This document shows, one piece after another, positions 7,507-38,892 of a DNA stretch of 64,000 bases (its first letter is position 1; every line of letters begins with the position of its first letter). The notes beneath the pieces are model-generated. The model had not been told where the DNA came from. It did not search any database and saw only the letters and a program-made list of their open reading frames with translations. The stretch spans positions 87,953-151,952 of the forward strand of contig URWY01000001.1 of assembly GCA_900551705.1 (NCBI GenBank), written 5' to 3'. Position numbers and translations under genes: made by a program. The DNA is from an uncultured Bacillota bacterium. GTDB taxonomy: Bacteria > Bacillota > Clostridia > Christensenellales > UBA1242.

Positions 7507-7530
7507 ATTCAGCCTCCTTAATTTAAAATA

Positions 7531-7559
7531 ATTATATACTACAAAACTATATTTGTCAA
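7531..7559 (-). promoter_or_regulatory. consensus sigma-A type promoter for the 6877..7506 gene
   Basis: Minus strand reads TTGACA, 17 nt spacer, TATAAT (plus-strand tgtcaa at 7554-7559, attata at 7531-7536). Confidence 0.6.
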
Positions 7560-7717
7560 TAGCTAAAATTAACTATGTGAAGAATAATTTTACTAGCAAA
7601 TTAAATGCTAAAAATTAATTAAAAAAAATAAATAAAAATTAATAAAAAAATAACAAAAAATATCAAATTAAATGCAAATTAATTCAATTTTAATTATCGA
7701 AAAATGCTTAAAAATAT

Positions 7718-7754
7718 AAAAAAAACGATTTTAAATTAAATATTTTTAAAATCG
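7718..7754 (-). terminator. rho-independent terminator downstream of the ttcA-like gene
   Basis: CGATTTTAAA / TTTAAAATCG stem (7726-7754), followed by T8 on the minus strand. Confidence 0.5.
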
Positions 7755-7788
7755 CTACAAGTGCCTATTTTAAAGGCGAATAAATATA

Positions 7789-8508: not shown

Positions 8509-8734
8509 GTAAATAAAAATACTAAAAAATTAGAAAAATAGCAACTTTTATTAGCAAAAATAATAATTTTTTTAATTTTTTTGTGATTAAAAATTATGTA
8601 AAAAAATGAAAAATTTTAAAGATATTTATATTATTTATTTTGAATTTTCTTTAATATGTTATATATTATAAATAATAATTCGATACATAATTAATAATTT
8701 TTAATTATTTACGGATATTATTAAGGAGGAAATC

Positions 8735-11700
8735 ATGAAAAAAATTGCTAAAATATTTACCTTTTTAATTTTAATTTTTTGTGGGGTTGTTTTTGCTTCC
8801 TGCGGCAAAGGTAGTGCAATGCCAACTATTTCTGCAAGCGAAACAAATTTTGAAATTGTTATCGGAACAGATGAAAGCAAAACTTTTGATGTTACTTTGT
8901 CTGACTATGGCAACGGTAGTGACAGCGTCAGGGTTGAATCCTATGAGCAAAACAGAATCATAGACATCACAACCGAAAAAATTAGAGATGGTTTAACTAG
9001 AGTTACGGTTAAACCTCTTTATCCAGGAAAAGCAACAATCAAGATTTCTTCCATAACACATAACGCGAAACCAATTGAAGTTACTGTCAATGTTATATTG
9101 CCAGTTGGCGACATTGAAATTAACAAAACTTTAGAAAATAAACTTTATGCCATTAAAGGTGAAAGTTTAGATTTTTCAAGTTTAGACCTTATCAACTACA
9201 TGGCAATTTCAACAGGCATAGAAGGGCTTAAAAATGTTCAGACAAACCAAATCGGCGTTACATATACTCTTGAAAATGTTTTGGTTGATGATGGTGTGTC
9301 AATTGAAAACGGCAAACTTGTTGTTTCAGAAGGTTGCACTTTAAATGAAGTTGAAGTGAGAGCAACTTCTATTTACAATTCTGAAATAACAAAAACTTTT
9401 AAAGTTAAAATTTTAAATCCAATTACAAGCGCGGTTTATATCGACGGCAGCAAGGTTTTTGAAAATGGACTTTTGGTTGACGGCTCGGGCGACAGTTTTG
9501 CGTTTGAACTCTATCCAAGAGAAAGTGATGTGACAATGAGCCAAAAAGATGTGCTTATTTATGTTAAAGCAGGTTCGGAAGCAGAATCTATCAATATTGA
9601 GAAAATCTTTGACGACACAAAATATGCTGTTGAACTTAAAAATTTAACTTACGAAGACGGTATGTTTAAATATGCTTACACAATTTCAGCGCTTAACGCT
9701 GGATATTTGGAAGGTATTTCATTTAAAATTTCATACAAAGATTATACTCTTGGAGAAAATGGTAACGACTACTTTGTAAAAAGCGGCAATTTGTCTGTTG
9801 CATCATATAATCTTCCAAACTCAGTTTTGGTAAATGGTAATTCATCAACAGCTAGCGGGCTAGATGTTCTTGTGTTTGAAAATATTGCGACCATCGGCAA
9901 GGGCACGCTTCTTGAATTTACTTTGTCACCATCAAATTTGGCGCCAGAATTTGAGACAATCAGATTATGGGCAGAAAATTATAATAATTGCCCAGTTAGT
10001 TTTTATAAATTAAACGCTACAAGAACAAGTTACGAACTCGTTTTTGGCTATCCAAGAGATGCAAAAGACGGGGATACTTTTGTTTGCAGCGGCATTGACC
10101 ATAACGGAAACGCATACTTTGATATGCCTGTTGGCACAAAATTATATGTTGTTAAAAATCAAAAATTTAACAAAACAGACAACACAAATGCAGTTATTTA
10201 CGCTTCTTCTCTTAATTTTTACGATTTAGGCTTAGAAAGAAGCAAAATTCAATTTAACATTAAAGTAAACCCAGGTGCAAGTTCGGTTAATAGAGTAAAC
10301 TATGACGGAACAAACTTCACAATCGTTAATTCAAATTTAATTGTTTCAGAATTGGTTGAAAATTTTGACATTTATCTTGCAATTGCTCCAGAAAACTTCG
10401 ATTTAGGCACTTCTTCAATTGTAAAACTAAAAAATTCTAACCTTGCCGATGTTTCTGGATTGACGGTTGTTGGCTCAGACGAAAAATATTTGTATGTTAA
10501 ATTTACTCTTTCACCTAAGAAATTAGGTTCAACAAAACTTACAATCTATTTATGTGACGGCTTTGAAAAAGAGTTTGATTTGAAAATTATCTCAACTCTT
10601 GACGATATCACTATTGATGTTAGCAAAGAAACAGAAAGCATTGTTGACTATAAAGAAAACTTAACAGGAAATATCGGCGAAGACTCATATTTAGTTCAAA
10701 AATTGGCTTTTAAAAGCGGAACAAGTATTCAACTTACAAAAACTGCATATCCATTTACAGCAGAATACATTCTTGAATATTCGTTCTATGACTTAACAAC
10801 TGTTAAATCAATTTCGCAATTAACAATCAGTGACATATTTGAAAATGCAAATTTTGGTTTGACATCAGATATTTTGAATGTTGACACATTGAAAAATTAT
10901 TCAATTATTCAAGCAAAAACATCTCAAAGTGCTGGAAAATCATTGATTAAAATTGATGTTAAAGGCAGAAATGCGGACGGAGATGGCTACGAACATGATG
11001 CGTCACACACTTTCTATTTTGTAGTTGAAATTTATAAAGGTGTGGACGGCTTTGAAATTTCTTCAAATGTTCATGAAATCTATTCTTATGAAACTTTGGG
11101 TGACAGAAACGCTGGAAAATCAAAATGTGAATTTAGCGTAACTCTCCAATCAAGATTTGGTTTGCCAACATACTTAAACGCACTTGAATTGTATTATGGC
11201 ACTGAACTTGTTGAATTTAACGATGCAAATCGTGCTGTTTTGAAATATGAAGGCAAAGACATTGTTGTAATAACAAGAAATTTGGACGGCAATGTGTGGA
11301 CATATAGCGTTCAAGCATTGACAAGCGATGTTCAAAATCTTGTTTTCGTGCTTAAACTTGTTGAAGCAAACGAAAGCAAGGTTATTGGCGGTGTGGTTCG
11401 TGTTGTTGTGAAAGACGCTGTTGAAATTGAAGATATTGAAATAGTCAATGTCGATTTAAATGATGGAATATATATCGAAAATAATAACTTTGAAGGCGAT
11501 AAAAAAGAAGCAACCTTTGAAATTAAATATAATTTATACACAAAAGATGGCTCAGAACCTTTAAATACTGGCTTAGAATTTGAATTATCAAGCAATTTAA
11601 TTGCTCTTGGCGTAAAAATTGATGCAAATGGAAAAATTACAGTTCCAGCAGGAGTTGGTGGAAACGGTAAAGTTTTAATTTATCCATCTAGCAACTATTT

Positions 11701-14700
11701 TGCATCGTCAAATGGAATGCAAGAAGGTTCTAAACCTTTTGTTACAATCAATATTGCAATAGCAAACGGCGAAAGTGAAGAAACTGCGATTAGAATTGAT
11801 AGTCAAGATAAAATTGATTATTTGAAAAAAGCGCCAACAAAACATTATTTATTGGCTGGAAATTTTGTTTTATCAGAAACAATGGGGGAATTTACAGGTG
11901 GAATTTACGGACTATTTAACGGCAGAAATTCAACATTAAATGTAACATCAACAATGTTTACAAAATTTGCTGGAATTATCAAAAATGTTGATGTTACTGG
12001 AAATATTAGCGCAAAAACTGAAAATTTAGGCATAATTGCGTATGAAAACTATGGAACTATTGAAAATGTTAATGTTTCAAATTTTGTAATTAATAATACA
12101 AAAACAGATTCTTATGTAGGTGTTTTGGTTGGCAAAAACTACGGAAGCATCACAGGTGGAGAAATAGTTGCAACTGTTAAAGGCCTTTATGTCGGCGGTG
12201 TTGTTGGCTTAAATGGAAAAATAACAGAAAATGCAGGAACTGAAAACGAAAAAACATATGTTGGCACAATTTCTGATGTGCTATTTGCTGGAAATATTTC
12301 TGCATCAAATAACGCAGGTGGAATTGCGGCAGAAAATGAAGGAACAATCAAAAATTGCAAAATTGAAAAATGGAGCAATAATAAAGACGCATTTATAAGC
12401 GCAAACGAAAATGCAAACGGCTATTTTGGTGCGATTGCAGGCGTTTCAAGTGGCGAAATTTCACAAACTTACGCTTATTCTTACAATGATACAAAGTATG
12501 ATGTTAGTGCAAACGCTAATGTTATAGTTGGCGGACTTGTTGGTTGCGTAACTGGCGGAGTTGTTTCAGAATGTATGACAAACTTCTCACTTGAGGGCAA
12601 TGGCGAAAAAGTTGGCGCTCTTGTTGGCGAAATCGAAAATGGTTCAGTTGTAAATTGCTATACATTAAGCAAAGTTTCAAATGCGTCAGCAAAAGCTTTG
12701 GCTATTAGTGGTGAAGATAAAATTTCAAATTCATATTCTCGCGCTTATTATGTTGAAAATGGTACAAATACATATTTAAAACAAACTGGTGGCGAAAAAG
12801 TTTTCGTAGCAGGGGATTATGACACATTAACAAATTTCAATCTTGCTTTACAAAATAATCTTAAAGATGAAAATTTGTGGGGATACGATGCAAGTATCAA
12901 CAATGGTTCGTTATATCTTGTTAATGCAAGCGCTCCAAAAGTTGTTGACAAAATCAATATAAATATCAACGAAACAGATAGTTCAAAATATATGTATTCT
13001 GAAAAAGATGGAACGATTAATATCGTCATGTATTTATATAAAGTGCTTGAAAGTTTGTCAGACGGCGTTGCAAAATCACAATTAAATAACTTAAATATTA
13101 TTTCACTTGAAGAAATCTTCGGTAAAAACAACAATTTATTGTTCAATTTAACGGCTTCTTCTTCAATTTCTTTTGTTGGAAATGAACTTAGAATTTCAGG
13201 TGTTGGCAAAACAGAAGTAAATGTTACATCTAAATACGCAAGCACATCTTGCAGAGAACAAAAAATTGTGTTCTATGTAATTTATCCAATTCAAGATTTC
13301 AATTTATATCATGGTTCTTCATCAATGAACCCATCAACAATTATTAAAAATGGCGATGTTGACCAAGTTGGATATTCAAAAACAGAAACATACGCATCAA
13401 ATGTTAAAGCAACAGTTCTTTTAAATGGTGCAAATTACTCAATATTTACTAACTTATTCGCAATAGGTTTTGAAATTAAATCAGGAGAAAATGATGCAAA
13501 CCGCATTTTAAATGGCGTTGGCTCAATTTACAATAATAAAGGAAATTCAAGTTTTGATGACAGTTATAAGTTTATTTCAGAAGGAACTTATACTTTATCG
13601 CCAAGCAATTATACATTTAACGAGAATGAAGACGAAAGATTTACAATCGAAACAATCTTGGCGCTTCAAAATAATGGTCTTGGAACATACCTTGGAAATA
13701 TTAAAGATTCTGATTTTGACATAATAAATGAATTAATTTCAAAGAATTTTAACAAAAATTACGAAGTTCAAGTTGTAAGAGGCGCAAGCAGAATTCAAAC
13801 AACATTAACAGATAGTGAACTTTCACCATCAAATGTGTTGAATTTTGATGTTGTGGCAATTTCTGATAAAAAAGACGAAAATATCATTGTTGAAATTTAT
13901 GAAAACGATATGTTAGTTGGTGCATCTAATACAAGAGATGAAAAAGCAATTTTTGATGTAACAGCAGTTAAATCAACAAAAGTTGGCAATAATCACAACT
14001 TTAATGTTTATGTATCTGTAAAAAGTGATATTAGAAAAACAATATCAAAAGTAAGAGAATTTAAAATTAAAATTTCAGATTCAGAAAGTAAAGTTGTTTC
14101 AACATTGAATTTGACATTAATACCACAAGAAGTTGTAAGCATTTCGCAATCACATTATGCAGCGGATAATACTAAATCAAATGGTTTTACAATCAATACA
14201 AACCCAACAACTGTTTTAAGACCTGGTAAAAATGGCTTACTTGCAATCAATTTGTATCCAGATTATGCGGCATATAGCAAAATTGAAATTGAAAGTGCGG
14301 TTGTAAATGGCGAATATTATGTTTTGTTTGAACAAATGATTAATTCGCAAAATAACGACTATATTAACGCTAGCGGAACAATTGGTTATAGTTCAGAACG
14401 CAACACAAATAAACTCACAATTTATCATTCAGAACAACTTGCAAAAGATAATGGAATGATTTATGTTAGAACAAAAATTGTTGATACTGTTAAAGAGGGT
14501 GTTTATTTCCCAATTACAATCAAAGTTTATCCAGCAGATCCAACAAAAGAAGTTAAGACAACAACAATTGTTCTTTCCGCTGAAACAATAAATAAAGCAC
14601 AAATTACAGTTGACGGCAAGAAAGACGCGGTTATTTCTCGCGGAAACTATGTTGATTTTGAAGTTGCAGTTAATGAAGACCAGGAACTTAGAGATATCCG

Positions 14701-17700
14701 TTGTGTTAATTATGAACAATCTAAGTTGGGTGGAGATTATATCAATATTGTTTACAACACTGCTGAATATGAGATTAGAGATGGCAAAAAGATTTATTCT
14801 GGAAGAATTAGAGCAGGTTTAAACGCAGAAATTAACGGTGATGGCAAAGTTGTTATTCAAACAATTATGAGAAAAATGATTAATGGAAAACTTGAACCAG
14901 AATATGATTCCATTACTTTAAGTATTGTTGATTTCACTGTTGACGGAATGTATATTGAAGGAAAGGCTGAAGATGATAATGTTTTTGTTGCACCAATTCA
15001 ATTGAGACAAGATTTAACTTTTGGCTTTAAACTTTCGTCAACACCAGCGTATAACAGCGCAAGCCAAGACGAACAAGATGCGGCACATAGAATTGCTAAA
15101 AATAAGGAATTTTTCCTTAAAAATATTGCTTTGAATATTAATTATAAATCAAACGACAATAATACTGATTATAACTATTTATACACATTTAATAAAGATA
15201 AATTAACTTTCTCAAATAACACGATTGAGCAAACTGGGGAAGGCGAGAATAAACAAAATAAAAATGGTTATAGTTTTGGTCTTTCAGAAAATGGAGAAAT
15301 AAATGCAAATTTAGCATACAATTTGTATTATAAAAATTCAGATACTAGTTATTTTGATGAAAACGGCGTCAAAAACACAAATAACTACTTTGATGTGATT
15401 GTTGACAAAGATGAAAATGATAAACCTTTATCATCAAGAACATTCTCAATTAATGGTTTGCGTAGCGGTAATATTCCAATGCAAATTAAAATTGCATACA
15501 CTCTTCCTGGCGACCACAATGTTATTAATTACTTCACTTATGACTTTACAATTAAAGTTCAAATATATGAAGATGAAGACACACCAATAGCAATTAAAAC
15601 GGAAGAAGAGTTTATCAGATATATGAACTCAACTACAACTGAAAGTGGCGAGCCAGCAAACTATATTTTGATGAACGACTTGTATTTGACGGATTTCACA
15701 CCTATTGCAAACACAGACATGATTGCATCGTTGGACGGCAATAATAAGATAATTACAATTAGAAACTTTAACATTTCTTCAATGTTAAATAACAATTCAA
15801 ATCAAACATTGAATTTGGCGTTATTCCAAAATGTTGGTGAAAATACAACTCTCAAAAACTTAACAATCAACTTGTATGAACTTGAAGATATTATTATTAA
15901 TGAAGATTTAGTTTCAAACGCTAACATTGCAGGTTTGTTTATTGAAAACTACGGAATTATTTACAACTGTGAAGTTACAGCACTTAACTTAGCAAAAGCC
16001 TATAACACAGATGTTTTGAAAAAAGCAGGCATTGTATCTTCATCTGTTGATCAAGATTTAAACAAAGCATATCGTTTTGCATCTCATTCAGACGGAAATG
16101 GTATCAGAGTTTATTTCAGTGCTGAAAATCATGGAAAATTGAAGAAAGACAGCACAACAGTTCAAATTGCTGGTCTTGGTATCACAAATTTTGCCGCTGG
16201 TAGAATTACAAACAGCCGTGTTGGAAATACAACATTCACAAAAGTGTTTATGACAGACATTGCTCAAAACAAGTCGGCAGATTATAGTTTTGCAGCAGAA
16301 CACTTGACACTTCTTGGTCAAGCAGATATTGCAGGTGTTGTTTTAAGAAATGGAGGCGTTATTGCTTCGTCATTCTTCTCAAATGGCTATATCACAAACT
16401 TGGCTGTTTCTGGAACAGCATCGAAAACAGCAGGATTTGCTATTTATAACGAATTTGGTGGAATAATCACTGGAAGTTATGTAAAATCTTTCAAAAAAGC
16501 CACAGAAATCAATAGTAAATACTGCACAGACGGCGGAATTTACGCAGAAGGCATTTCAGCAGGATTTGTTTATGAAAACAGTTCTAAGATATCAGATTGC
16601 TATGCAAACTTGCTTTTAGGTGGTAGTTTGTCTGGCAGATTGGTTTCAGGATTTGTTTATTCAAATACAACAACTGGCGAAGTTGAAAGATGTTATTCAG
16701 CAGCAACAATTACAGGTAAATTAACAACTCGTATGCCATTCTCAGGCAACAATGCTAGGGGTGACAGCATGCAACTTGGCAAATTTACAAATTGTTACTA
16801 CTATGTTCAAAATTATGATACAGAAACACTTCTTGAAGAAAAATATTCAACAGGTGCATATGCAATTTTGGCATCATTAGTAGATAGTGATTTGTTATAT
16901 GGTTTTGCATACACAAGCGACTCAAAAGAACTTATCGGCTCTGCAGTTGACGGCGTTTGGAGATATGTAAATGGCGAAATCACACTTACATCAGCAAACG
17001 AAGTTGCAATTTCAGTTAGATATTTAATTGAAAATTATAACGGACAAGAAGGTGCAAGAAGATTCCCTTATGTTTCAGGATATGAATATGGTTCTTCTAA
17101 GAACCCAATAATTATAAGAACAGCAGACGAATTTAACAGAGCATTTGGTCAAGAAACAGGCTTAAAAGAAAATGCTTACTATGCAATTAGTCAAAAATAT
17201 AACAAAAATGACGGAACAGTATTTGGAAATTACAGGTTAATTTCACATATTGACTTTAATAATTTACAAAACATTGCAGCGACAAAAGTTGCATCTTCTC
17301 TCATGACTTTAACTGGAAAATCAACAGCACAAGGCGGAATTTTTGACGGCAATGGTTTAACAATCTCTAATGTTGAAATCGCTTTAAGTGAACATACAAG
17401 CGTTGGACTATTCAGCCAAATTGTATCTGGCGCAGTTTTCAAAAATGTAAACCTTACAGTAAAACAAGTTAGTGCAGGTAACGGCGTTACAGTTGGCGGC
17501 GTTACAGGTCTTGTATATTCATCATCACTTATCAATATTGATTTGCAAGCAACAAACTTGAAGGGCGAAAATCGTTCCGAAATCAATGGCGTAAATGTCA
17601 TTGGTGGTATTGTTGGTGTTGTTCAAGGTGACAGCAAGTTGTCTAACCTTTCTTCATCAATTTCAGTTATTTCAAATTATCGTGGCGATAGCGAATATAA

Positions 17701-28876: not shown

Positions 28877-28915
28877 CACCTTAATTAGGTGAGTTAGACA
28901 AAGGGAGAAACTAAC

Positions 28916-31900
28916 ATGAAGATAAAAAGATTTATAGTATTGATCCTTGCAATGATTATCGGAATTATTCCGATAGTCTTTGCTGGATGCGGTGGAGTTG
29001 ATACTAACAATCTATCAATTACAATGATAACGAAAGAAGATAGCGTGGAAGGTGATTTCAAAGTCATCAATTTATCTGTTGACGATGAAGAACAAATTTC
29101 GCGCGAACTTACATTTCAAATTGTAAATTGGCAAGACGGCATGAGTGCTGGTGTTACTTTCTCCACAGACTCTAACGCGGTTGAGATTTCAGACAGGCAA
29201 TATTTGTCTGGCGGACGAGTAAAAATTAAAATAACAGCAAAATCGGGCGGAAGTGCGATTATTACTGCAACAACTCAACAGTATTCTAAACAAACAAGCA
29301 TCCTCGTTAGAATTTCTGAAAAAATCTCAGATTTTAATTTGAAAAATAATATTGAAACAATTTATTTTGAAAAAGGCAGTGAATTAAAACTCAATGCTGA
29401 AAACTTATTTAACTTTTATCCAAGCAGCACAACTCAAAGAGAATTGAAGGCTTATAACGGCGAAAATTTAATCACGAACGAAAATGGCGAACATATTCTC
29501 AGTGGTTTGGAAGAAGACACAACAATAACATTTGTGAGCGAGAATTTAGATGGAATTTCAAGAAATGTTTATGTAAAAGTTATTGAAAAACTTGAAAATG
29601 ACGATATTTTATTAGAAAAATTGATGCTTTCTAATAAAAATGAAAGTTTTTATACACAAATTAACAGTGGCGACACGCTACAAATTTTAAAAAATAACAA
29701 TGCTAAAACGATTGAAAATTTTGATGTTGCATACAATGAAAGGCAAATTAAACTCACAATTAATTGCAATCAAACAGATTTAAAAGTTAAAGCAGTTGTT
29801 TACACAAAAGACGGCAACAACTGGGTCAAAAATGACTTACTTGTTGCAAATATTGTTCAAAACGGAACATTAACAAATGGCAAATATGAACATATTTTCA
29901 AATTTGAATATGCTGGATTCAATCAAATGAAGGTTGTGTTCACATATCAAATTGGAGAATATACATATTCAACAAATAGCGAATTGTATTTTGATTGCGT
30001 GGAAGCGCCAATTAATCTAGCCATAAATAAGGATATTTCAACAAATCAAGAAATAACTATTTATGACCCAACAGAAGGTTATATTGGCAAAAACTTAACA
30101 TTTGCGGTATATCCACAAAATTGTATTGATTACAATATTAACTTATTATTAAACGCAAATGCTGACAGTATTTTAAAGGTTTTAAATTCAAAAGGAATTA
30201 ACAAAGCTAGAGAAGATGCCAGTGAGTTTAACTATAAAAGCAAGATTTCTTTATCCAATAATGAATCAATCAGAATTTCTGCTATCAATGCAGTTGATTT
30301 TAAATCTGTTGATGTTGTGGCTGAGATAAGATACACATTTGAAAATGTAACTTATGTTATAAATTACACAATCAAAGTGAATATCAAGCGCTCGCCAACA
30401 GCAATGGTTATAACTGATGATAAGTTCGCAGATGGTGAACTTGCAGGAACAGTTACAGAATATACAAAATATATATTTGACTTAAACAGTGGCAAAATTT
30501 TGGACGAAAACGGAAATTTGATAGATAATTTCGGTAAAAACACATTAAAACTTTATGTTTATGCTGAACTTGACGGAATTTTGGAAAGTGGACATGATTT
30601 CGTAATTGTCAACAATTTAGGCATTGTTAATGTAGAAAATACTGAAAACAATGAAATATTAATCACTGCAAAAAGTGTTGGAACTGGCTCGTTCTTTGTT
30701 GTTTTAGACAACGGAATGAGAAAATATTTCAGTATTGAAGTTATTGAGTCGCTTTCAAAATTGGAATTATCTTTCCCAACTCCAACGCAGAATTCAAACA
30801 TCTATTTAAACAAAAAATCAAGCGAAAGTGGATATTTATTTGAAATAATTGCACTTACAGGTGCAAAAATTCCACCAATAGTTGTAAAAAATGGAAATTT
30901 AATTTCTTACGACTTTGCTGGTGAAGGTTTTAATTACACAAATGGCTATATCATCGGTCAAGAAGATACAGATGGATTTGTGGAATGTTCATTCACTGCA
31001 ACTCATTATTATTTAGATAGCAACAATGAAAAGCAAGTAAGAACTACAACATATAAATTTAAAATTATGTTCTATTCAAGAATTACAAACTTTTCAGTGA
31101 CTACAAATAAAGGTTCAACAAATTTTGATTTATACAATTTAGCGAATGTTGGTTATTATTCAGAAAAACTAGCGACTGCAATTATCACAATTAATATTGG
31201 GCCAGACGAACTTAGAACATCATTATTAAAAAATATTAAATGGCAAACAAATGTTGGTTGGGACAGCGACCCAGACATTGACGGCGATATTGTTAAATAC
31301 TCAAATAAAGTTTTCACATTCACATTTAACACTGCAACTGGAACAGGCACAATAATTTGTAATGTTGCAAAAATGTATGAAAATGAAAACGGAGAACTTG
31401 TTCCAACAGATTATTTTGATGAAAATGGCAATTTTAGACTTGGTAAAGTTGTTTTAACTGCCACAATCGAAAGAGAGCAAGGCGGACAAGAACTAGACAA
31501 TTTAACAAAGAGTGTTCAATTTGATATTTTAAACAAAACACCAGTTGAAGAAATTGTTGCGAGTGTGAATAGTATTAATATTGATAGGTTTAAAGGCGTA
31601 ATGTCAATTTTCACAACTGTGTATCCAGTTAGCGCAAGCAATAAAGAACTCAGAGCAATTTTCATTCCAAATGATTTGAGTTATGCAAATGCAATTCAAT
31701 TTAAATGGGTTGGTGATAAATTGGAAGTTACTCTTGACACAAAATATCAAAGTGGTCAAGGAATTATTAGGCTTATTGCGATTGATAGTTATTCAACTTC
31801 CGAAACATTTACAACTTACTTAGATATTCCGCTTGTAATTTGCGATGGTAGTGAAGAATATCCATTCCAAATTATGTCGGAAAAAGATTTAAGAATAATG

Positions 31901-34900
31901 ATTGAAACAAACTTTGAAAAGAACTACAACATTATTGGAACAATTGATATTTCAAAATTTGTTGATAATCAAAACGAAGGCTGGAAATATTCACAATACA
32001 TTTTAAAAGGTAAAATCAAAGGAATAAACAACGCCTGCTTTACAGGAATTGAAATTTCAAGCAAATCAACTTCAAATTCTTATGGCTTGTTTGCTGGTAT
32101 TGATGCCAATGCAAGTATAGAAAATGTTAAATTTGAAGGTAAAATCGATTTAGATTTGTCGTCGGAAGACGCATTAGAAGAATATCAAGAAATAAATATC
32201 GGTTTGGTTGCTGGCTATAACAAAGGTATCTTAAAAAATATATATGTTCTTATGAACACATCTTCATTAAGGGCAAATTATGGATACAAAATCAATCTTG
32301 GTTGCGTAGTTGGCACAAACGAAAATGAAATTATAATTGACTCAAATGCAAACTATAACAGACTTGTAAATTTTGAAAAAGATACTTCATTTACAATTAT
32401 AGATTGTTCCCCAGACAACGATGCAACTCATACATTGTTTGTGGGCGGTGTTGCGGGTAAAAACACTTGGATAATAACAAGCAGTATTCAAAGCAACACA
32501 ATGCTTGTGTATATCAATTTTGTATTGAAATACGAATGGACAGGCACAGGCGCTGGAAAATCACATCGCTTAGGTGATCATGAAGCAATCGGCGGTGTTG
32601 CTGGTTTGTCTGAATATCCTGAAACAACGACAACAATTCTTGGCATATCAGGAATGACTGTTGAAGGAAAAATCGTTGCTGGAAAGATGGCGAACAATAA
32701 ATTTATCGGACATTTTAATAATGTTGGCGGATTAGTTGGCGAAAACTCACTTAATATAACAAATTGCGTATCGCAAGTTGTTGTTAAGGGTAGAGAAAAT
32801 GTCGGCGGCGGCGTTGGATTTAACAACGGCGGAAGCCTTTCAGAAATTAAAATTCAAGCGCTTGAAAAAGGCGATTTAACATTAGTTGTTGGTAACAATA
32901 ATGTTGGCGGAATTGTTGGACAATTCGCAGACGGCAGCATTGAGAAATCAACATTCATAACTTATATTTCTAAACCATTTGACGCAACAAATTATTTGGG
33001 TGATATAGTTGTTTATAACACAGCGATTTCATCACAAGGAGTTCATACCGGCAGAATTGTAGGTTTACTAAATAACAATATAAGGAATATAAATTATGTT
33101 GTTGCGATTGCAAATTTAAAAGCAGATTGCGAAATAAACTTGCCAATCAATGTTGTAAGCACAGAAAATATTGTAATTTATGGGAAAAACAACATATTAA
33201 ACATAACAAGTGATGCAAATTTCATCAATGATAATTTCTTAATGAACTTAGTAAACGAGCAATCTAGCGGACTTGATTTAAGTGGAATTTCAAATCTAAA
33301 TAATTTCATTGAAAAAATTATTGAGTATGAAAATTGGGCTAAAACAAATAACAAAGAAATTTTGACATCATTTATTGTTTTGCCACCAACAAGAATTGAC
33401 CAAAACTTAACCGAAGAGGGTAAAAAACAACAATTAGCAACAAAAACGGGCGATGAATTAATTTTCTATTTAAAATTGCACCAAAAATCAGATGGCTCTC
33501 TTGAAGGATTTAGTTCGTTAAATAAAAATAAAAATGAATATGAAATTGAAACATACATAACTGTAAAAGCAAATTCAAACACAAACTTGGTGTTTACATC
33601 TAGTGACGAAAGCGTGCTTTTGATTGAAGATGGAAAATTTAAAGTTTTGAGAACTGGGCTTGTAAAAGTTACTGTAACTAGCGAATTTAACACTTCACTT
33701 TCAAAACATTTTTATGTTTATGTTGTCAGATATGTTGACGATTTCACATCATTTAGAAAACCAGATAGAGAATCAAGCGAATTAACATCTGGAACATACG
33801 AAGTGTTGAACAAAGGCACAAGTTACATGATGTATTTCAAATACTTAAACAAATACAATGTAAAAGATTATTATGAAAGTCAAGAAATTTTAGTTGCTAT
33901 AAGAGTTGACGGAAGAATAATTTTTGCAACAGGCGAAACAGACAGCGTAACAGGTTTAAGATTTACAAGAATTTCAAATGAAGCATATCAACTTACCGCA
34001 ACTAAATTGCAATCAGAATTTAAAGAAATTTCATTCATTTACTATTTTGAAACAAAAATTGGTGATGATATTTATAACAGAATTGCAGAAATTGAGGGCG
34101 TAGAATATATCAACTTTAAATATAAAGTCATAAATGAAACAACAAAAATTAGTGTTTCGGACCCTGATATTGAAGTTATGCCTTTCTATCAACCACAAGT
34201 TGATGTTGAATTGGTTTCTGAAAATGAAAATGAAAAAATTACAATTTTGTCATATTTAGTTTCAAAAGATGGCACATTAAGTGCAGCATTAAACTTTAAT
34301 TATAAAGTTTGGGTAAATAATCAACTTCAAAATTCAAATGCATTTGAAATAAATGCAAGAAATTACAAAACATTTAGAATTCAATTCTATTTAGAAGAAA
34401 ATGCAAGAGAAATTAAAAGTGATTTGACTTTCAAAGTAGTTATAAGAACATCTAACAATTTGGAAACAAGCGTTTTAGTTAATTTCAAACCGCAAAAGCC
34501 AAATGATATAACAGTTGATTTGTATCCAGAAAAGAGCAATATGAACGATGAAGTTGTTTCAATTCCAAATGACGAAATGTTCTCATACATTGCTTCAAAC
34601 AAAATCGTCCCTGGAACAAATTCGCTTCTTGAATTTATCATTTTCCCAGCGTATTCAAATTATGATTACATTTTAATTAAGAATTTCGCAAGCAACGAAT
34701 ATAAACTCGTGTTTGAATTGTATGACAGAGCAACAAACAAAGCGGTCTTAGGCTCACAAGATGTTGACGGCGGAATTAAAGTTTTGAAATCTGCTATCAA
34801 AAATGGCTGTTTTGGAATAAGAATTTTCTTAGATTCAAGAATTACTGATTTCTCAACTGTTTCAATTGAAATAGATGTCATAAAAGACGAAAAGTCATTG

Positions 34901-37900
34901 CTTGACAAAAAAGTGACAAAAACCTTCTATGTTGAGCAATTGCCAGGTGTTAAAGTTGAAGTTGATGGCGTTAAGAGTGGAAACACAGCGGACGACCCTT
35001 TAAGAGTTGCACTTGGACTTGACTACGACATGAAATTGATAGTAAAAGGCTACTCAGACGGCGTTTTAACATTTGACCAAGCATCAAGCACTTATAGCGA
35101 TGGCGAATTAAGGTTTGTTTTATCAGATGCTAAATTGGCAACCATTGTTAAAAATTCAGGTGGAACATATTCGCTGAAAATTAACAAAAACGCAACTGGA
35201 AGACTTGTTATAACAACCTATGGTGAGCAACTCACAACGACAGGTGTAAAAAAGAGCGATGAATCTTCATTGTATATTGACATTGTTGAGTTTGTTATAA
35301 AACAATCTATAAATGGTGGAATTATTAAAGAAATTGACAACGGCGTTATATATTCCGCAGTTGGAAATACATATACTTTTGAAGCAACATTGAATGACCA
35401 AATTTTGATTTATGACAAGACAAACGCACAAATTATTGAAAAAGTTCAACAATTTATTAAAGATTTATCAAGTTATTCAATAAATGGACATTCATGGTTT
35501 GTTAAAGATGTAAATCAAGTGTATTATGGTTGGTCACAAATTACGCAAGATAGTTTTGGTAGATATGCAGAATTATCAAACAACGCTTATGAAGTAAGAG
35601 TTGAAAATAACAAAGTAAAAATTGTTTTCAAGAAAGTTCAAAGCGAAAGCAATCCAACACTTCTCTTTAAGTTTGAAAGAAGTTATTACTATGATAATGG
35701 TGAACCAAGAGTTGGTAGACCTGCAAGTGGACAATACTTCACACTTATGGAAGAATTTGTGTTTGATATTGCAGAAAAAACGAATATAAGAAATCCATAT
35801 CCAATTTATTCTGTAAAAGAGTTTTTGAATATGCGTGAAGGCAATTATTATATTTTGATGAATGATATTGAATTGCCAAAAGATTTCACTCCAATAACAA
35901 CAAATATCGGCGGTTTTGATGGAAATAACTATAACATCAAAATGACAGCGGGTGCGTTGGAATATAACAACACAGGCAACAATCAACAATTTAATTTTGG
36001 ACTTTTTGAAACAATTTCAGAAGGTGCGCTTATTGCAAATGTTAGATTGTATATTGAAGGCGAAATAACTATTGATTTAACAAGCTATCCTTCAATAAAT
36101 TTTGGACTTATTGCAGCGAATAACTATGGAACAATAACAAACTGCGCGGTTGTTGGTTCAACTTATGCGCATATTATCATCAATGTAAAAGACACAGTTA
36201 ACAGTTCAGACGAACCAAGCCACATTGTAGCAGGATTTGTTGCAACAAACGGCTCAACTGGCACGATTTCAAATTCACGAGTTGAAGTTTCGATTACTTC
36301 AAAAGGAAATATTGCAGGATTTGTATATTCTAACTCAGGCACAATAGCATCATCGTATGTTTATGGTTCGATTATTAACAACACTGTTTCCACAACATCA
36401 AAAACTGCGGGCTTCGTTGGAATAAACGAATACGGCGGATTAATATTTACAAGTTATATTGCTGGCGACTATGTCGATAATCATCAATTCTCAACAAGCA
36501 CAAGCAAAGTTGTTTATACAGCACATAGAGTTGGTGCATTCGTATACACTAACAGTGGCAAAATTTCAAATTGTTATGCAAATATTCCAGTAAGTTCGGC
36601 AGCGAGCCGTGCAAGCGGATTTGCGTATATCAACGAAAAAAGCGGAGAAATTGAGTATGGTTATTCGTCATGTTTAATGGCAAGTAACAGAAACTCACAC
36701 ACATCGTTTATTGGAAGGTCAGCGGAAGCGTTGCTTAATCGCGGAACAATCACAGAGTGTTTTGCTCTTGAAGATGCGGTGTTAAACATTGCTATTAAGG
36801 GAAATACAAATGAAGTTCAAGTTGAGTTTGCTAACTCCAAACTTGGTTCAAACGACAACATTTCTGGTCTAACAATTTTAAGGGCAACATTTAAAGAAAT
36901 CTATGATGATAATAATGATCAAAATCAATATTATTATTACAATGATAATGGAACAAAACAAAAAATTTGCCAAATAGGACAGACTCCAAGGATTTATAAC
37001 AATTCAGACTTTGTTGTATGGTCAAACGAAAAACTTGCAGATCCTAAAACATTTGCAAAGTTTGCGTTATCTAATGACAGCACAAATACAAACGGCGTTT
37101 GGTTCTTTGCAAAAGCATCAACTGAACAATCGTATGTAAATGACGGCAAATATTTGGTGTTAAAAACAGGTCGTCCAGAACTTGTTTCTCCAAATTTGAT
37201 AGTGAGTGGACATCAAACATTCTCACATACTTCGCTTGACGAAACAACTGGCGAAACAATTTATCACTATATCAGTGCAGAAAATTTGGGCGGATTACAT
37301 AATCCATACATCATTTCATCGGTTGACGACTTAGAATTGATTGCAGAGAACAAAAATAACTTAATTGGCGAAGATAAATATTACAGACTTGTAAATGATA
37401 TTATTTATGAAACAGGAACTATTTCAAGTAAATTATATAAATATTATTTCTTAGGGAATTTGGAAGGCAATAGTTTCACAATCGGCAATTATGTTATTGA
37501 CTCTTCGGAAAATATGGAATTTGCAGGTTTCTTTGCAGGAATTGGAAGCAGATTTAAACAAATGGGCTCAATTAAGAATGTCAACTTTGCACCAAGATAT
37601 ATCAACTTGCCAAACACGAACTCAGTTGGCGCAATTGCCGGAGTAATCTTTGGCGCAAACATCATAAATGTCAACATTGACGGCTTTACTTATGATAATG
37701 AAGGAATTGTCATTCTTGGTAAAAACGCAGTTGGCGGTGTTGCAGGTGTTGCACTTGGAAATTATTTGTTAAACAATATTAAGTCTAATATTTCAGTCAA
37801 TGCCACATATAGAGCAAAATTAAGCGCACACGATGTTCAAATCTTTGACGAATTTAACCTTAATTCAATTTCACATGCTGGATTAATTGTTGGTGCAGTC

Positions 37901-38869
37901 GGTGGCTACGGAAAAGCAAATTACATTCAAACAAGCGGCGATAATGTTGCAATAGGTGAAAGTGTTGGTATGCTTTTCGGAAGTATTGGAAAGAATGTTG
38001 AAGCGACAGATCTTGTAGTTAAACAAAGTTCAAAACAATCAATCAAAGCAGATATCTATGCAGGCGTTATTGCAGGCGTAAGTGCTGGTAAATTAAGCAA
38101 TATTTTGGTTGATAAAAATGAAATTAGCAAAAACTCATTCTTCGCAGATACAATTTATATTCCAATTGCGATAGGAAATGTCGTTGGTTATGTTGTTGGT
38201 GGAAGCATTGAAAATGCGATAGTTAACACAACAACTTATGTTCCAAGTGGTGTAACATTTGTTGGCGGCGCGGTTGGAATTATGCAAGACGGCTCACTTA
38301 AAAATATCGTTATAAACGGAAATATTTCAGCAGGCGAAGTTGTTGGTGGCGTTGTTGGTTACATCGGAATTGTTGAAGCAAAAGGATATACTGGCAACAT
38401 AAAACGCGTTGAACTCGCAAAAGACAGCAAAATTTCAATCACAGATTGTTATCTCGTTGGAAATATCGTTTCGACAACATCAACTAACGAAGTCCGAGTT
38501 GGAACTGTTGCAGGTTTGATTAATGGTGTAAGTAAAGACGATGTAAGCATTTCGGACATCAATGTAAAATCGAATGCAAAAGTTACAATCACATTTAGCG
38601 ATGGCTTAGTTTTAACAAAAAACATCATCTCAATTAGCAATTACTCATATAATACAACCAGTGTTTCAATTAGATATGGCATTGTAACGACTAAAAAAGC
38701 GACAAACGAAGGTCAAATATTATATGAACATATTGATGCGAATAAGAATAATCGTTTGTATATCGAAAAACCATACATATTCCAAATAAATTCAGAAAAT
38801 GGAAATGTCGGAGTAAATGATACAACCTATGCTAAATGGGATAAAATAGGACAAGAAAAGAATGCGTAA
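28916..38869 (+). CDS. giant surface lipoprotein (3317 aa), paralogous architecture: Ig-like domains and 3 GLUG-type beta-helix modules
   Basis: Uninterrupted ORF 39 nt after the previous stop. AAGGGAG SD at 28901-28907. Signal peptide MKIKRFIVLILAMIIGIIPIVFAGCGG with a lipobox. Big_2-like N-terminus. Same GGxxG/NCY beta-helix motif family as the first gene. No Flg_new tail. Confidence 0.9.
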   Translation: MKIKRFIVLILAMIIGIIPIVFAGCGGVDTNNLSITMITKEDSVEGDFKVINLSVDDEEQISRELTFQIVNWQDGMSAGVTFSTDSNAVEISDRQYLSGGRVKIKITAKSGGSAIITATTQQYSKQTSILVRISEKISDFNLKNNIETIYFEKGSELKLNAENLFNFYPSSTTQRELKAYNGENLITNENGEHILSGLEEDTTITFVSENLDGISRNVYVKVIEKLENDDILLEKLMLSNKNESFYTQINSGDTLQILKNNNAKTIENFDVAYNERQIKLTINCNQTDLKVKAVVYTKDGNNWVKNDLLVANIVQNGTLTNGKYEHIFKFEYAGFNQMKVVFTYQIGEYTYSTNSELYFDCVEAPINLAINKDISTNQEITIYDPTEGYIGKNLTFAVYPQNCIDYNINLLLNANADSILKVLNSKGINKAREDASEFNYKSKISLSNNESIRISAINAVDFKSVDVVAEIRYTFENVTYVINYTIKVNIKRSPTAMVITDDKFADGELAGTVTEYTKYIFDLNSGKILDENGNLIDNFGKNTLKLYVYAELDGILESGHDFVIVNNLGIVNVENTENNEILITAKSVGTGSFFVVLDNGMRKYFSIEVIESLSKLELSFPTPTQNSNIYLNKKSSESGYLFEIIALTGAKIPPIVVKNGNLISYDFAGEGFNYTNGYIIGQEDTDGFVECSFTATHYYLDSNNEKQVRTTTYKFKIMFYSRITNFSVTTNKGSTNFDLYNLANVGYYSEKLATAIITINIGPDELRTSLLKNIKWQTNVGWDSDPDIDGDIVKYSNKVFTFTFNTATGTGTIICNVAKMYENENGELVPTDYFDENGNFRLGKVVLTATIEREQGGQELDNLTKSVQFDILNKTPVEEIVASVNSINIDRFKGVMSIFTTVYPVSASNKELRAIFIPNDLSYANAIQFKWVGDKLEVTLDTKYQSGQGIIRLIAIDSYSTSETFTTYLDIPLVICDGSEEYPFQIMSEKDLRIMIETNFEKNYNIIGTIDISKFVDNQNEGWKYSQYILKGKIKGINNACFTGIEISSKSTSNSYGLFAGIDANASIENVKFEGKIDLDLSSEDALEEYQEINIGLVAGYNKGILKNIYVLMNTSSLRANYGYKINLGCVVGTNENEIIIDSNANYNRLVNFEKDTSFTIIDCSPDNDATHTLFVGGVAGKNTWIITSSIQSNTMLVYINFVLKYEWTGTGAGKSHRLGDHEAIGGVAGLSEYPETTTTILGISGMTVEGKIVAGKMANNKFIGHFNNVGGLVGENSLNITNCVSQVVVKGRENVGGGVGFNNGGSLSEIKIQALEKGDLTLVVGNNNVGGIVGQFADGSIEKSTFITYISKPFDATNYLGDIVVYNTAISSQGVHTGRIVGLLNNNIRNINYVVAIANLKADCEINLPINVVSTENIVIYGKNNILNITSDANFINDNFLMNLVNEQSSGLDLSGISNLNNFIEKIIEYENWAKTNNKEILTSFIVLPPTRIDQNLTEEGKKQQLATKTGDELIFYLKLHQKSDGSLEGFSSLNKNKNEYEIETYITVKANSNTNLVFTSSDESVLLIEDGKFKVLRTGLVKVTVTSEFNTSLSKHFYVYVVRYVDDFTSFRKPDRESSELTSGTYEVLNKGTSYMMYFKYLNKYNVKDYYESQEILVAIRVDGRIIFATGETDSVTGLRFTRISNEAYQLTATKLQSEFKEISFIYYFETKIGDDIYNRIAEIEGVEYINFKYKVINETTKISVSDPDIEVMPFYQPQVDVELVSENENEKITILSYLVSKDGTLSAALNFNYKVWVNNQLQNSNAFEINARNYKTFRIQFYLEENAREIKSDLTFKVVIRTSNNLETSVLVNFKPQKPNDITVDLYPEKSNMNDEVVSIPNDEMFSYIASNKIVPGTNSLLEFIIFPAYSNYDYILIKNFASNEYKLVFELYDRATNKAVLGSQDVDGGIKVLKSAIKNGCFGIRIFLDSRITDFSTVSIEIDVIKDEKSLLDKKVTKTFYVEQLPGVKVEVDGVKSGNTADDPLRVALGLDYDMKLIVKGYSDGVLTFDQASSTYSDGELRFVLSDAKLATIVKNSGGTYSLKINKNATGRLVITTYGEQLTTTGVKKSDESSLYIDIVEFVIKQSINGGIIKEIDNGVIYSAVGNTYTFEATLNDQILIYDKTNAQIIEKVQQFIKDLSSYSINGHSWFVKDVNQVYYGWSQITQDSFGRYAELSNNAYEVRVENNKVKIVFKKVQSESNPTLLFKFERSYYYDNGEPRVGRPASGQYFTLMEEFVFDIAEKTNIRNPYPIYSVKEFLNMREGNYYILMNDIELPKDFTPITTNIGGFDGNNYNIKMTAGALEYNNTGNNQQFNFGLFETISEGALIANVRLYIEGEITIDLTSYPSINFGLIAANNYGTITNCAVVGSTYAHIIINVKDTVNSSDEPSHIVAGFVATNGSTGTISNSRVEVSITSKGNIAGFVYSNSGTIASSYVYGSIINNTVSTTSKTAGFVGINEYGGLIFTSYIAGDYVDNHQFSTSTSKVVYTAHRVGAFVYTNSGKISNCYANIPVSSAASRASGFAYINEKSGEIEYGYSSCLMASNRNSHTSFIGRSAEALLNRGTITECFALEDAVLNIAIKGNTNEVQVEFANSKLGSNDNISGLTILRATFKEIYDDNNDQNQYYYYNDNGTKQKICQIGQTPRIYNNSDFVVWSNEKLADPKTFAKFALSNDSTNTNGVWFFAKASTEQSYVNDGKYLVLKTGRPELVSPNLIVSGHQTFSHTSLDETTGETIYHYISAENLGGLHNPYIISSVDDLELIAENKNNLIGEDKYYRLVNDIIYETGTISSKLYKYYFLGNLEGNSFTIGNYVIDSSENMEFAGFFAGIGSRFKQMGSIKNVNFAPRYINLPNTNSVGAIAGVIFGANIINVNIDGFTYDNEGIVILGKNAVGGVAGVALGNYLLNNIKSNISVNATYRAKLSAHDVQIFDEFNLNSISHAGLIVGAVGGYGKANYIQTSGDNVAIGESVGMLFGSIGKNVEATDLVVKQSSKQSIKADIYAGVIAGVSAGKLSNILVDKNEISKNSFFADTIYIPIAIGNVVGYVVGGSIENAIVNTTTYVPSGVTFVGGAVGIMQDGSLKNIVINGNISAGEVVGGVVGYIGIVEAKGYTGNIKRVELAKDSKISITDCYLVGNIVSTTSTNEVRVGTVAGLINGVSKDDVSISDINVKSNAKVTITFSDGLVLTKNIISISNYSYNTTSVSIRYGIVTTKKATNEGQILYEHIDANKNNRLYIEKPYIFQINSENGNVGVNDTTYAKWDKIGQEKNA

Positions 38870-38892
38870 CCGCATTCTTTTTTTATTTTTTG
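38857..38892. terminator. bidirectional rho-independent terminator between convergent genes
   Basis: AAAGAATGCG-TAAC-CGCATTCTTT stem-loop overlaps the stop codon of the giant gene, with T-runs on both strands. The permease gene ends at 38883 from the other side. Confidence 0.6.

Follow-up and report, generated by a model that had tools for sequence, protein, structure and literature searches.

Gene pair, expression signals and integrity of the sequence

The 64-kb stretch of genomic DNA analysed here (referred to throughout as the window) comes from an uncultured gut Clostridia lineage and carries, one behind the other on the plus strand, two very long open reading frames (ORFs). Their products, ORF1 and ORF2, have 6713 and 3317 amino acids (aa), respectively, and are predicted to be giant surface lipoproteins. 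An earlier note on this DNA, made from the sequence alone, had described two same-strand frames 39 nt apart with no terminator between them, a Shine-Dalgarno sequence in front of each, and one bidirectional terminator behind the second. All of these elements were found again, at the following positions:

8640..8669, plus strand: putative sigma-70-type promoter (TTGAAT, a spacer of 16-18 nt, TATATT/TATTAT), from a consensus scan
8723..8729, plus strand: ORF1 Shine-Dalgarno sequence AAGGAGG, 5 nt 5' of the ATG, read from the sequence
8735..28876, plus strand: ORF1, predicted giant lipoprotein of 6713 aa, open reading frame without internal stop
28877..28915, plus strand: intergenic spacer of 39 nt, containing the ORF2 Shine-Dalgarno sequence and no plus-strand terminator
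28903..28907, plus strand: ORF2 Shine-Dalgarno sequence GGGAG, read from the sequence
28916..38869, plus strand: ORF2, predicted giant lipoprotein of 3317 aa, open reading frame without internal stop
38853..38884, plus strand: intrinsic terminator with a 14-bp stem that includes A/T-run pairing, followed by a T-run; common to ORF2 and the convergent ABC permease gene

A terminator on the plus strand of the spacer was looked for and was absent, the only structure being a 5-bp hairpin without a T-run. Other strains and species keep the length of the spacer (37-39 nt) but not its sequence. As the spacer lacks a terminator and the short gap is kept across species, co-transcription of ORF1 and ORF2 is plausible on these sequence grounds. 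Behind ORF2, an A-run located 5' of the hairpin at 38853-38884 makes the terminator look bidirectional.

Upstream of ORF1, the element at 8640-8669 may serve as the promoter of the gene pair. A promoter-like arrangement, TTGAA[AT]...ATATGTTATAT(T)AT, is also present 5' of the ortholog in L001, a Clostridia metagenome-assembled genome, the encoded protein being ~41% identical. The putative promoter is flanked by a perfect 12-nt inverted repeat (ATTAAAAATTAT / ATAATTTTTAAT, at 8586-8597 and 8694-8705) in DNA of 19% GC. An invertible promoter, which would allow for phase variation, was not supported: the inverted repeats there are otherwise AT-rich and imperfect, no invertase is encoded nearby, and the orientation is the same in another strain. 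The 12-nt repeat around the promoter is probably due to chance. A replication origin in the divergent intergenic region 8509-8734 was rejected. The DnaA-box matches in the window were not significantly above those in shuffled sequences, and none of them was in this region.

Since the sequences come from metagenomes, frames of such length could be chimeric or collapsed-repeat assemblies, or else the non-functional remnants of decaying pseudogenes. In L005 (scaffold GAIO21-1_SAMN11097782_METAG-scaffold_96, 1-9961), the ORF1 ortholog was indeed called at only 3292 aa, with its start at position 83. However, the frame in L005 is open through position 1, its 10 kb of ORF1 contain no stop codon, and the first 300 nt compared are identical to those of strain L004; the shortened call is probably a scaffold gap or a gene-calling effect and not a true truncation. 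In the 30 kb occupied by the two genes we found no direct DNA repeat of at least 40 nt and no significant tandem repeat (four trivial ones apart). Internal protein similarity is weak too. Self-comparison by blastp and phmmer gave hardly any internal repeats, on which ground a simple repeat protein or a collapsed repeat assembly was rejected. The identical 6713-aa ORF1 protein is present on 6-7 independent contigs of different sources (NCBI, ENA and Logan assemblies), one of them a 25-kb contig of run ERR209454 with 100% identity over 23 kb. For ORF2, the cluster at 90% identity comprises 72 members, of which those listed (15) range from 3311 to 3318 aa, and a second strain encodes versions of 6694 and 3314 aa, likewise with a 39-nt gap. 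Because intact frames recur in independent assemblies and long DNA repeats are missing, an assembly artefact or a pseudogene appears extremely unlikely. Moreover, insertions and deletions keep the frame, and the ratio of nonsynonymous to synonymous substitution rates (dN/dS) in the N-terminal, stalk part of the proteins is well below 1, which points to selection on the coding frame.

Lipoprotein signals, domain order and paralogy

In both proteins, a basic n-region at the N-terminus leads into a hydrophobic h-region, and the lipobox Cys follows within the first ~35 residues. The N-terminus of ORF1 is MKKIAKIFTFLILIFCGVVFAS-C23, in which the n-region MKKIAK is followed by IFTFLILIFCGVVFAS-C23, and that of ORF2 is MKIKRFIVLILAMIIGIIPIVFAG-C25, in which the n-region MKIKR is followed by FIVLILAMIIGIIPIVFAG-C25. 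The pattern used in the scan, which we take to be the Gram-positive G+LPPv2-type lipobox pattern, matched 2 of the 45 ORFs of at least 100 aa in the window, namely ORF1 and ORF2. In an alignment of ORF1, its relative P0001 and ORF2, residues F20, A21, C23 and G24 are invariant, and in a 15-sequence alignment of the family described below the lipobox Cys is at least 90% conserved. All family members longer than 1500 aa have [ASGC]-C at residues 22-32, save the weakest match, P0076 (E 9e-4). The Cys is retained in long members down to ~20-30% identity, and ORF2-type relatives retain IPIVF[AF]GC.

Other anchors were not found. A motif scan of ORF1 and ORF2 revealed neither an LPxTG-like nor an HExxH motif and no hydrophobic segment beyond the first, the two proteins had no Pfam match to the cell-wall-binding domains SLH and CWB2, and a G5 domain was found in neither. 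A sortase motif is absent also from about eleven giant relatives. Thus, both the signal peptides with lipobox Cys that the earlier note had pointed out and its statement that an N-terminal lipid is the sole predicted attachment, with no LPXTG or SLH anchor, agree with the pattern match, the motif and Pfam scans, and the conservation of the Cys in the family. Neither lgt nor lspA is located within the window. Judged from the sequence, both proteins would be lipidated and displayed at the cell surface.

The domain content that could be seen depended on the length of the query. Pfam scans were made with whole proteins, with 3400-aa halves and with 700-750-aa pieces, and the scans of whole proteins and halves missed every GLUG match. 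As GLUG was visible only in the 700-750-aa pieces, routine annotation will show such giant proteins as devoid of domains; the whole-protein scan gave no family above threshold for ORF2 and zero families for the relatives P0022 and P0027. In the pieces, GLUG (PF07581) exceeded its gathering score of 20.5 in segments of both proteins, as the earlier note had proposed. In ORF1 (23.3 and 39.5 bits), the matches above the gathering score are at aa ~1191-1209 (23.3 bits) and ~3139-3163, with further ones near or below it at aa ~4849-4872 and ~5123-5145; the match in ORF2 is at aa 1326-1347 (26.0 bits). Flg_new (PF09479), the second of three families named for checking, was found in ORF1 only (51.6 bits against a cutoff of 27). 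The sole addition from NCBIfam was TIGR02543 (List_Bact_rpt), with 28-29 bits against 20.95 in ORF1. A hidden Markov model (HMM) made from internal repeats detected six Flg_new-like copies in ORF1 (aa 5999-6137 and 6364-6703), which amount to ~7% of the protein, and none in ORF2. The third family, Big_2 (PF02368), had been suggested as the first domain of both proteins, but it gave no match at E<=1 in the 700-750-aa pieces of either, and the region is Ig-like (immunoglobulin-like) at the level of fold only. A Peptidase_M26_N match in ORF1 is partial: it spans positions 174-249 of the 250 in the model, with 32-34 bits (cutoff 27.7). In ORF2 there are sub-threshold matches to Big_1 (E 0.13) and T2SS-T3SS_pil_N (21.5 bits; cutoff 23).

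The domain maps of the two proteins are as follows:

8735..8803, plus strand: ORF1 signal peptide and lipobox VFAS-C23 (lipobox pattern match)
8804..11764, plus strand: proximal stalk of ORF1, aa 24-1010, Ig-like array of ~10 beta-sandwich domains (AlphaFold2 model, Foldseek); family-specific
11777..12934, plus strand: GLUG beta-helix module 1, aa ~1015-1400, boundaries approximate (Pfam GLUG 23.3 bits, cluster of GLUG-like motifs)
12935..15544, plus strand: second beta-rich spacer region, aa ~1401-2270, colinear with ORF2 aa ~1400-2280; no Pfam match
15602..18424, plus strand: beta-helix modules 2 and 3, aa ~2290-3230 (AlphaFold2, Foldseek, Pfam GLUG E=5e-10); most conserved part of the family
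18302..28873, plus strand: distal half of ORF1, aa ~3190-6713, GLUG modules, beta-rich inserts and Flg_new domains; fast-evolving in pairwise comparisons
19421..19663, plus strand: C-terminal part of Peptidase_M26_N, aa 3563-3643, start of beta-helix module 4 (Pfam E=7e-8 to 2e-8)
26729..27145, plus strand: Flg_new / InlB-B-repeat-like domains 1-2, aa 5999-6137 (PF09479, TIGR02543, internal-repeat HMM)
27824..28843, plus strand: Flg_new / InlB-B-repeat-like domains 3-6, aa 6364-6703, predicted C-terminal tip (PF09479 E=3e-12, internal-repeat HMM)
28916..28990, plus strand: ORF2 signal peptide and lipobox VFAG-C25 (lipobox pattern match)

The AlphaFold2 model of ORF1 aa 24-1010, made with the 15-sequence family alignment, is all-beta with a mean predicted local distance difference test score (pLDDT) of 84, and its strand pattern is that of a string of about ten ~95-residue beta-sandwich domains. 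In a Foldseek search of the PDB it matched Ig-like domain arrays with E-values of 1e-23 to 1e-9. These are parts of nucleoporin gp210, contactins, cadherins, alpha2-macroglobulins and the neck of the GhpA grappling hook, as well as of an RTX-adhesin extender and the surface-layer (S-layer) proteins SbsB, Sap and SbsC. As modelled, aa 24-1010 have a generic stalk-type fold. The model of aa 2230-3330 (12-sequence alignment; pLDDT 75, predicted template modelling score 0.78) shows the short regular strands typical of beta-solenoids, arranged in right-handed beta-helices. Its best PDB matches were the helices of M26 IgA1 proteases (7uvl, 7uvk, 6xja and 6xjb; Foldseek probability 0.9-1.0), and further matches were to GH55, PL6, fucoidan lyase, Ag43, PfbA and phage tailspikes. 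Module 1, by comparison with modules 2 and 3, would also fold as a beta-helix, and aa ~1401-2270 may have an Ig-like fold. Together with the GLUG and M26_N matches, the models and the Foldseek results agree with the long Ig-like stretches and GLUG-type beta-helix modules that the note had read from the sequence. It had recognised no characterised homolog, and none came up in our homolog searches (run with pieces of 1000-2000 aa in the case of ORF1), in the profile search described below or in a sequence search of all PDB chains, in which the best results were chance matches with E 0.05-0.2.

The similarity to enzymes raised the question of whether one or more beta-helix modules are catalytic, as if the proteins were giant depolymerases of mucin or dietary glycans tethered to the cell surface. 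The Foldseek matches include GH55 glucanase, PL6 chondroitinase B, fucoidan lyase, GH136 lacto-N-biosidase, pectate lyase and phage tailspike depolymerases, and the Peptidase_M26_N match ties the modules to IgA1 proteases. However, all these Foldseek matches are weak (E >= 5e-3) and have in common the generic right-handed beta-helix fold, and the beta-helix of M26 proteases is a non-catalytic domain. No Pfam match to a catalytic domain of a carbohydrate-active enzyme (CAZyme) or a peptidase was found at E<=1 in the 700-750-aa pieces of the 10,030 aa. As Peptidase_M26_C had no match either and HExxH is absent, ORF1 and ORF2 are not members of the M26 peptidases. Modules 2 and 3 are 46-60% identical to those of ORF1-type relatives and 27-29% identical to those of the ORF2 type. 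Their family-invariant residues are mostly Gly, Asn, aromatic or aliphatic, and the five charged ones were assigned by reading to module entry or rung motifs (such as NDI.L and DGNN), leaving no invariant acidic or basic cluster. That almost all invariants of the beta-helices are Gly, Asn or hydrophobic suggests a structural or binding role and not catalysis, and a tethered enzyme seems to us quite unlikely.

Standard blastp aligned ORF1 with ORF2 in a single 29%-identical stretch (ORF1 aa 2267-2688, ORF2 aa 2281-2616). Relaxed settings gave one gapped alignment of ORF1 aa 1-3293 with ORF2 aa 3-3269, with 19% identity and 152 bits. The control scores were much lower: at most 46 bits for the C-terminal half of ORF1 against ORF2, 36 bits for reversed ORF2, 27-38 bits for ORF2 after shuffling of its residues and 78-96 bits after shuffling of its 300-aa blocks. 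This comparison of sequences identifies ORF2 as a paralog that is colinear with the N-terminal half of ORF1. The order common to both is signal peptide with lipobox, Ig-like array, beta-helix 1, second beta-rich region, and beta-helices 2 and 3. The surplus of ORF1 over ORF2 is ~3400 aa and holds all the Flg_new domains. Of the proposal that the two are paralogs built on one plan, the paralogy thus stands in a more specific form, with ORF2 corresponding to ORF1 aa 1-3293, whereas the common plan applies to the first half of ORF1 and not to the further ~3400 aa.

Conservation gradient, family and locus

Conservation between strains changed along ORF1, as the following comparisons indicate:

ORF2, full length, against strain L004: 97.1% aa identity, dN/dS 0.14
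ORF1 aa 1-2385, against L002: 94.7% aa identity, dN/dS 0.15
ORF1 aa 3374-6713, against strain L004: 81.7% aa identity, dN/dS 0.62
Flanking genes for the ABC ATPase and RarA, against strain L004: 98-99% aa identity, dN/dS 0.02-0.09

By these ratios, purifying selection acts on ORF2 and on the N-terminal part of ORF1. Against L004, the ORF1 windows aa 3824-3961 and 6465-6713 have a dN/dS of at least 1, and the blocks aa 5149-5279 and 5580-5870 are 57-65% identical with a synonymous rate (dS) of 0.5-0.8, which suggests allele exchange in these blocks. With the single full-length comparator, P0018, identity is 73-96% over ORF1 aa 1-3190 and 44-83% beyond. Over residues 1 to ~4690, ORF1-type proteins of other species are colinear and 30-48% identical. 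Residues ~4700-6713 have only conspecific homologs, plus distant Flg_new matches in other Clostridia ('InlB B-repeat-containing protein'). At 90% identity, the ORF1 cluster has one member against 72 in that of ORF2, in agreement with a variable distal part. The relative P0019 ends in three Flg_new domains and a DUF285 leucine-rich repeat, and such a different tip indicates that the distal end is modular. At the sequence level, the gradient along ORF1 is consistent across the comparisons.

A hypervariable C-terminus might also be the exchangeable effector of a polymorphic toxin directed at neighbouring cells in contact-dependent antagonism. The hypervariability of this region of ORF1, the raised dS in blocks, suggestive of recombinational allele exchange, and the differences of the distal modules between species would fit such a system. 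However, the variable part consists of ~2000-3400 aa of beta-rich structural modules ending in Flg_new, in which no compact toxin domain is apparent, and ORF1 had no toxin Pfam match. Instead of a small immunity gene, the next gene downstream is the one for the 3317-aa paralog, and orphan C-terminal cassettes are not present nearby. We regard a toxin as very unlikely.

To define the family, a profile of the N-terminal 1000 aa was searched exhaustively against 1.84 billion representative proteins, which yielded 60 proteins at E<=1e-3. About eleven of them are giants of 3238-6677 aa that were matched over most of the profile from residue 1. They split into ORF1-type (4990-6677 aa) and ORF2-type (3238-3307 aa) proteins, and the Cys lipobox is present in all. 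The family is narrow, new and effectively unannotated, although built of known domain types, and, as far as the sequences found in this search go, it is confined to one uncultured gut Clostridia lineage. In the literature on giant lipobox proteins in Clostridia we found nothing specific. A large-type signal recognition particle RNA and the relatives of GyrB place the organism in an uncultured Clostridia lineage of low GC content from gut metagenomes. The GyrB of Candidatus Caccopulliclostridium gallistercoris (Clostridia incertae sedis) shares 80% identity with that of the organism, and a genome fragment with 95% identity is labelled 'uncultured Firmicutes bacterium'.

One flank of the gene pair contains gyrA and the genes for a GNAT acetyltransferase, GyrB, a small membrane protein and a TtcA-like tRNA thiolase. 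The opposite flank holds the genes for an ABC permease and an ABC ATPase, a 482-aa ORF with no family match, and the gene for RarA. A survey of synteny in relatives, which the earlier note had recommended, found the pair at the matching gyrB-side locus in other species of the lineage. L011 and L012 have a 5959 + 3270 aa pair beside genes for GNAT, GyrB, a protein without assignment and a TtcA-like protein; in L008, a 5313 + 3238 aa pair is followed by ABC genes; and in L001 an ortholog that ends at the contig edge is located beside gyrB and the TtcA-like gene. In several species, down to ~30-40% protein identity, both the pair and its neighbouring genes are conserved.

Two flanking ORFs gave no family match. 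The 482-aa protein (40803-42251, plus strand) is rich in Lys and Asn, starts at a TTG codon and has a hydrophobic segment at its N-terminus. The small membrane protein between gyrB and the TtcA-like gene (6877-7506, minus strand) has 209 aa, is of low complexity and has a central membrane segment. In related genomes, ORFs without a Pfam match occupy the positions of both.

Further downstream in the window, a ~7-kb segment (44718-51751) beside a tRNA-Arg(CCT) gene (44850-44924) is absent from the L004/L007 strain. It contains genes for a tyrosine integrase (45035-46447, minus strand) and a protein with a T5orf172/MUG113 domain (47913-48641, minus strand), and three ORFs without a Pfam match; it looks like a small strain-specific element integrated at the tRNA gene. 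The product of a gene at 52260-53066 (plus strand) combines collagen triple-helix repeats with a C-terminal BclA domain and resembles an exosporium filament protein. Between strains this region is ~85% identical with many gaps, and in the other strain it was called as two genes, of 132 and 120 aa. Near it, at 58033-58830, lies a YetF/DUF421 gene, and these two genes hint at a spore-forming organism. A 754-aa ORF at 55329-57593 (plus strand) combines the iPGM_N and Metalloenzyme domains of a cofactor-independent phosphoglycerate mutase with a C-terminal ribulose-phosphate 3-epimerase. This fusion was also called in the other strain (735 aa) and is an unusual union of two enzymes of central metabolism.

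Proposed role of the two proteins and relation to known systems

Fibrillar adhesins are defined by great length, a stalk and an anchor; Flg_new is one of the stalk domains in that definition, and M26_N-like beta-helices are said to resemble carbohydrate-binding adhesive domains (Monzon et al., PMC9210967). What ORF1 and ORF2 have in common with this class, as far as can be predicted, is a very long secreted polypeptide, a stalk of repeated beta-sandwich domains, a surface anchor and a fast-evolving exposed end. They have the length (6713 and 3317 aa) and the rod-like stalk (~10 consecutive beta-sandwich domains, pLDDT 84). As an anchor they have the predicted lipobox, whereas the sortase motifs and anchor domains that define the class were not found. 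In place of a known adhesive domain, the beta-helix and Flg_new modules are candidate binders.

We favour, with moderate confidence, the view that the locus encodes two paralogous giant surface lipoproteins, probably in one transcription unit, which resemble fibrillar adhesins and combine a conserved stalk with a variable tip in ORF1. A conserved lipidated end and a variable, modular distal end form the pattern expected of a fibre at the cell surface that encounters ligands, antibodies or phages with its tip. Each protein would be exported by the Sec pathway and lipidated at Cys23 or Cys25, which would tether its N-terminus to the outer leaflet of the cytoplasmic membrane. From there, the polypeptide would reach outward as a mostly rigid all-beta fibre in which Ig-like arrays alternate with right-handed beta-helices of the GLUG/M26_N type, the stalk plan being common to ORF2 and the first ~3300 aa of ORF1. 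The distal ~3400 aa of ORF1, furthest from the membrane and fast-evolving, with six terminal Flg_new/InlB-B-repeat domains, would be the likely ligand-contacting and antigenically exposed tip. Such fibres may attach the cells to gut host mucus, glycans or other cells, with pressure from ligands, immunity or phages driving the variation of the tip. Both the fibril and the adhesin function, adhesion itself included, are what we infer from this architecture. By rough domain counting, with each Ig-like domain taken as ~3.5-4 nm long and each beta-helix rung as ~0.48 nm, ORF2 would extend over ~100 nm and ORF1 over ~200 nm.

Several points weigh against this view. In contrast to ORF1 and ORF2, classical Gram-positive fibrillar adhesins are sortase-anchored at the C-terminus and carry the tip at the N-terminus. 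A known adhesive Pfam domain was looked for in both proteins, and none was found. The Foldseek E-values of the beta-helices are weak (best 5e-3), and the AlphaFold2 models described above cover aa 24-1010 and 2230-3330 of ORF1. The dN/dS values of 0.15 and 0.62 for the two halves of ORF1 are single pairwise comparisons made with different comparator strains, and the hypervariable blocks may be partly misaligned. Finally, ORF2 and the stalk are strongly conserved at a fixed core-genome locus in all relatives examined, as would be expected more of a structural component of the cell envelope than of an accessory adhesin.

Such a component is the main alternative to ligand-specific adhesins, with which it could also coexist. 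The proteins would then form a structural coat, that is, a lipid-anchored brush or an S-layer-like layer, perhaps as a hetero-oligomer of the paralogous stalks, that sets the spacing at the cell surface and protects against phages, immunoglobulin A or bile. In support of that, the pair and its flanks (GNAT, gyrB, the unknown gene, TtcA-like, ABC permease/ATPase) are kept down to ~30-40% protein identity, dN/dS is ~0.15 for ORF2 and the ORF1 stalk, the Ig-like array matches the S-layer proteins SbsB, Sap and SbsC, and a recognisable adhesive domain was not found. However, the likeness to S-layer proteins is generic to Ig arrays, as nucleoporins, contactins and cadherins match equally well. Neither SLH nor CWB2 domains were found, there is no sign of lattice formation, and the fast-evolving modular tip, with Flg_new in ORF1 and a DUF285 leucine-rich repeat in a relative, resembles an interaction module. 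A coat is possible but rather doubtful in our estimation. Less likely still, ORF1 and ORF2 may not be independent adhesins but subunits of one lineage-defining surface organelle, in which the colinear, conserved stalks of ~3300 aa are paired side by side on the membrane and only ORF1 projects an exchangeable ~3400-aa tip. If this were true, the two genes next to gyrB would be a core unit, present in all members of the uncultured gut Clostridia clade, for a heteromeric fibre with lipid anchors that lacks a described counterpart among Gram-positive surface structures.

Taken as fibrillar-adhesin-like proteins, ORF1 and ORF2 differ from that class in further respects. Since their anchor is a predicted N-terminal lipid, their polarity would be reversed, with the tip at the C-terminus. 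Their stalk domains are highly diverged and not near-identical tandem repeats, they have several interspersed beta-helix modules instead of one tip domain, and they are a conserved core-genome paralog pair. The best structural and Pfam match, the right-handed beta-helix of the GLUG/Peptidase_M26_N type, is that of the streptococcal and Gemella M26 zinc metalloproteases (IgA1 protease/ZmpA, ZmpB, ZmpC; 6XJA, 6XJB, 7UVK, 7UVL). The match is limited to the non-catalytic helix (E~5e-3, 12-14% identity), and the M26 catalytic domain, HExxH, G5 and LPxTG are all lacking in ORF1 and ORF2. The InlB B-repeat, or Listeria-Bacteroides repeat, proteins (PF09479, TIGR02543) resemble ORF1 in the six such domains at its end; these domains are absent from ORF2, and the remaining architecture is unrelated. 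PfbA of S. pneumoniae (4MR0) and the autotransporter Ag43 (4KH3), both in the Foldseek list, use a right-handed parallel beta-helix as a surface for binding or self-association, but the scores are weak (E 0.1-0.3), each has a single helix, and they are secreted and anchored by other systems.

The nearest analogue in organisation, by description and not by sequence comparison, is Giant1-5 of Apilactobacillus kunkeei (PMC12863079), with which we found no shared Pfam domains. There, five consecutive genes encode extracellular proteins of 3000-8000 aa, which take a large share of the small genome of a host-associated Firmicute; the proteins have elongated predicted structures with beta-solenoid domains, and intragenic recombination diversifies them (PMC12863079). 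In Giant1-5 there is a Sec/SPI signal, the beta-solenoid tip is N-terminal, and long imperfect short repeats and C-terminal DUF5776 domains are present (PMC12863079), whereas ORF1 and ORF2 have a lipobox, a C-terminal variable tip (in ORF1), Ig-like arrays, GLUG helices and Flg_new domains.

As to size, placing 6713 aa at the extreme upper end of bacterial proteins, as the earlier note did, was too strong. The giant bacterial genes studied by others reportedly have products of tens of thousands of residues. UniProtKB contains 41,754 proteins of at least 5000 aa, a sizable share of them bacterial, and among giant bacterial proteins surface proteins are the second major class after non-ribosomal peptide and polyketide synthases (PMC11573180). 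Much larger bacterial genes are the subject of a preprint (bioRxiv 10.1101/2023.11.21.568195).

The locus reveals no new molecular principle, and the proteins fit a known functional class. Within that class, it would exemplify a reversed polarity in a Gram-positive fibrillar surface protein, with an N-terminal lipid anchor and a C-terminal tip. The domain map, the stalk/tip gradient and the definition of the family provide concrete targets: the tip in assays of binding to glycans or mucin, the stalk in work with antibodies or electron cryotomography. The hypervariable half of ORF1 is usable as a strain-typing marker. Two genes that take 30 kb at a fixed core locus probably encode the dominant feature of the cell surface in this lineage.

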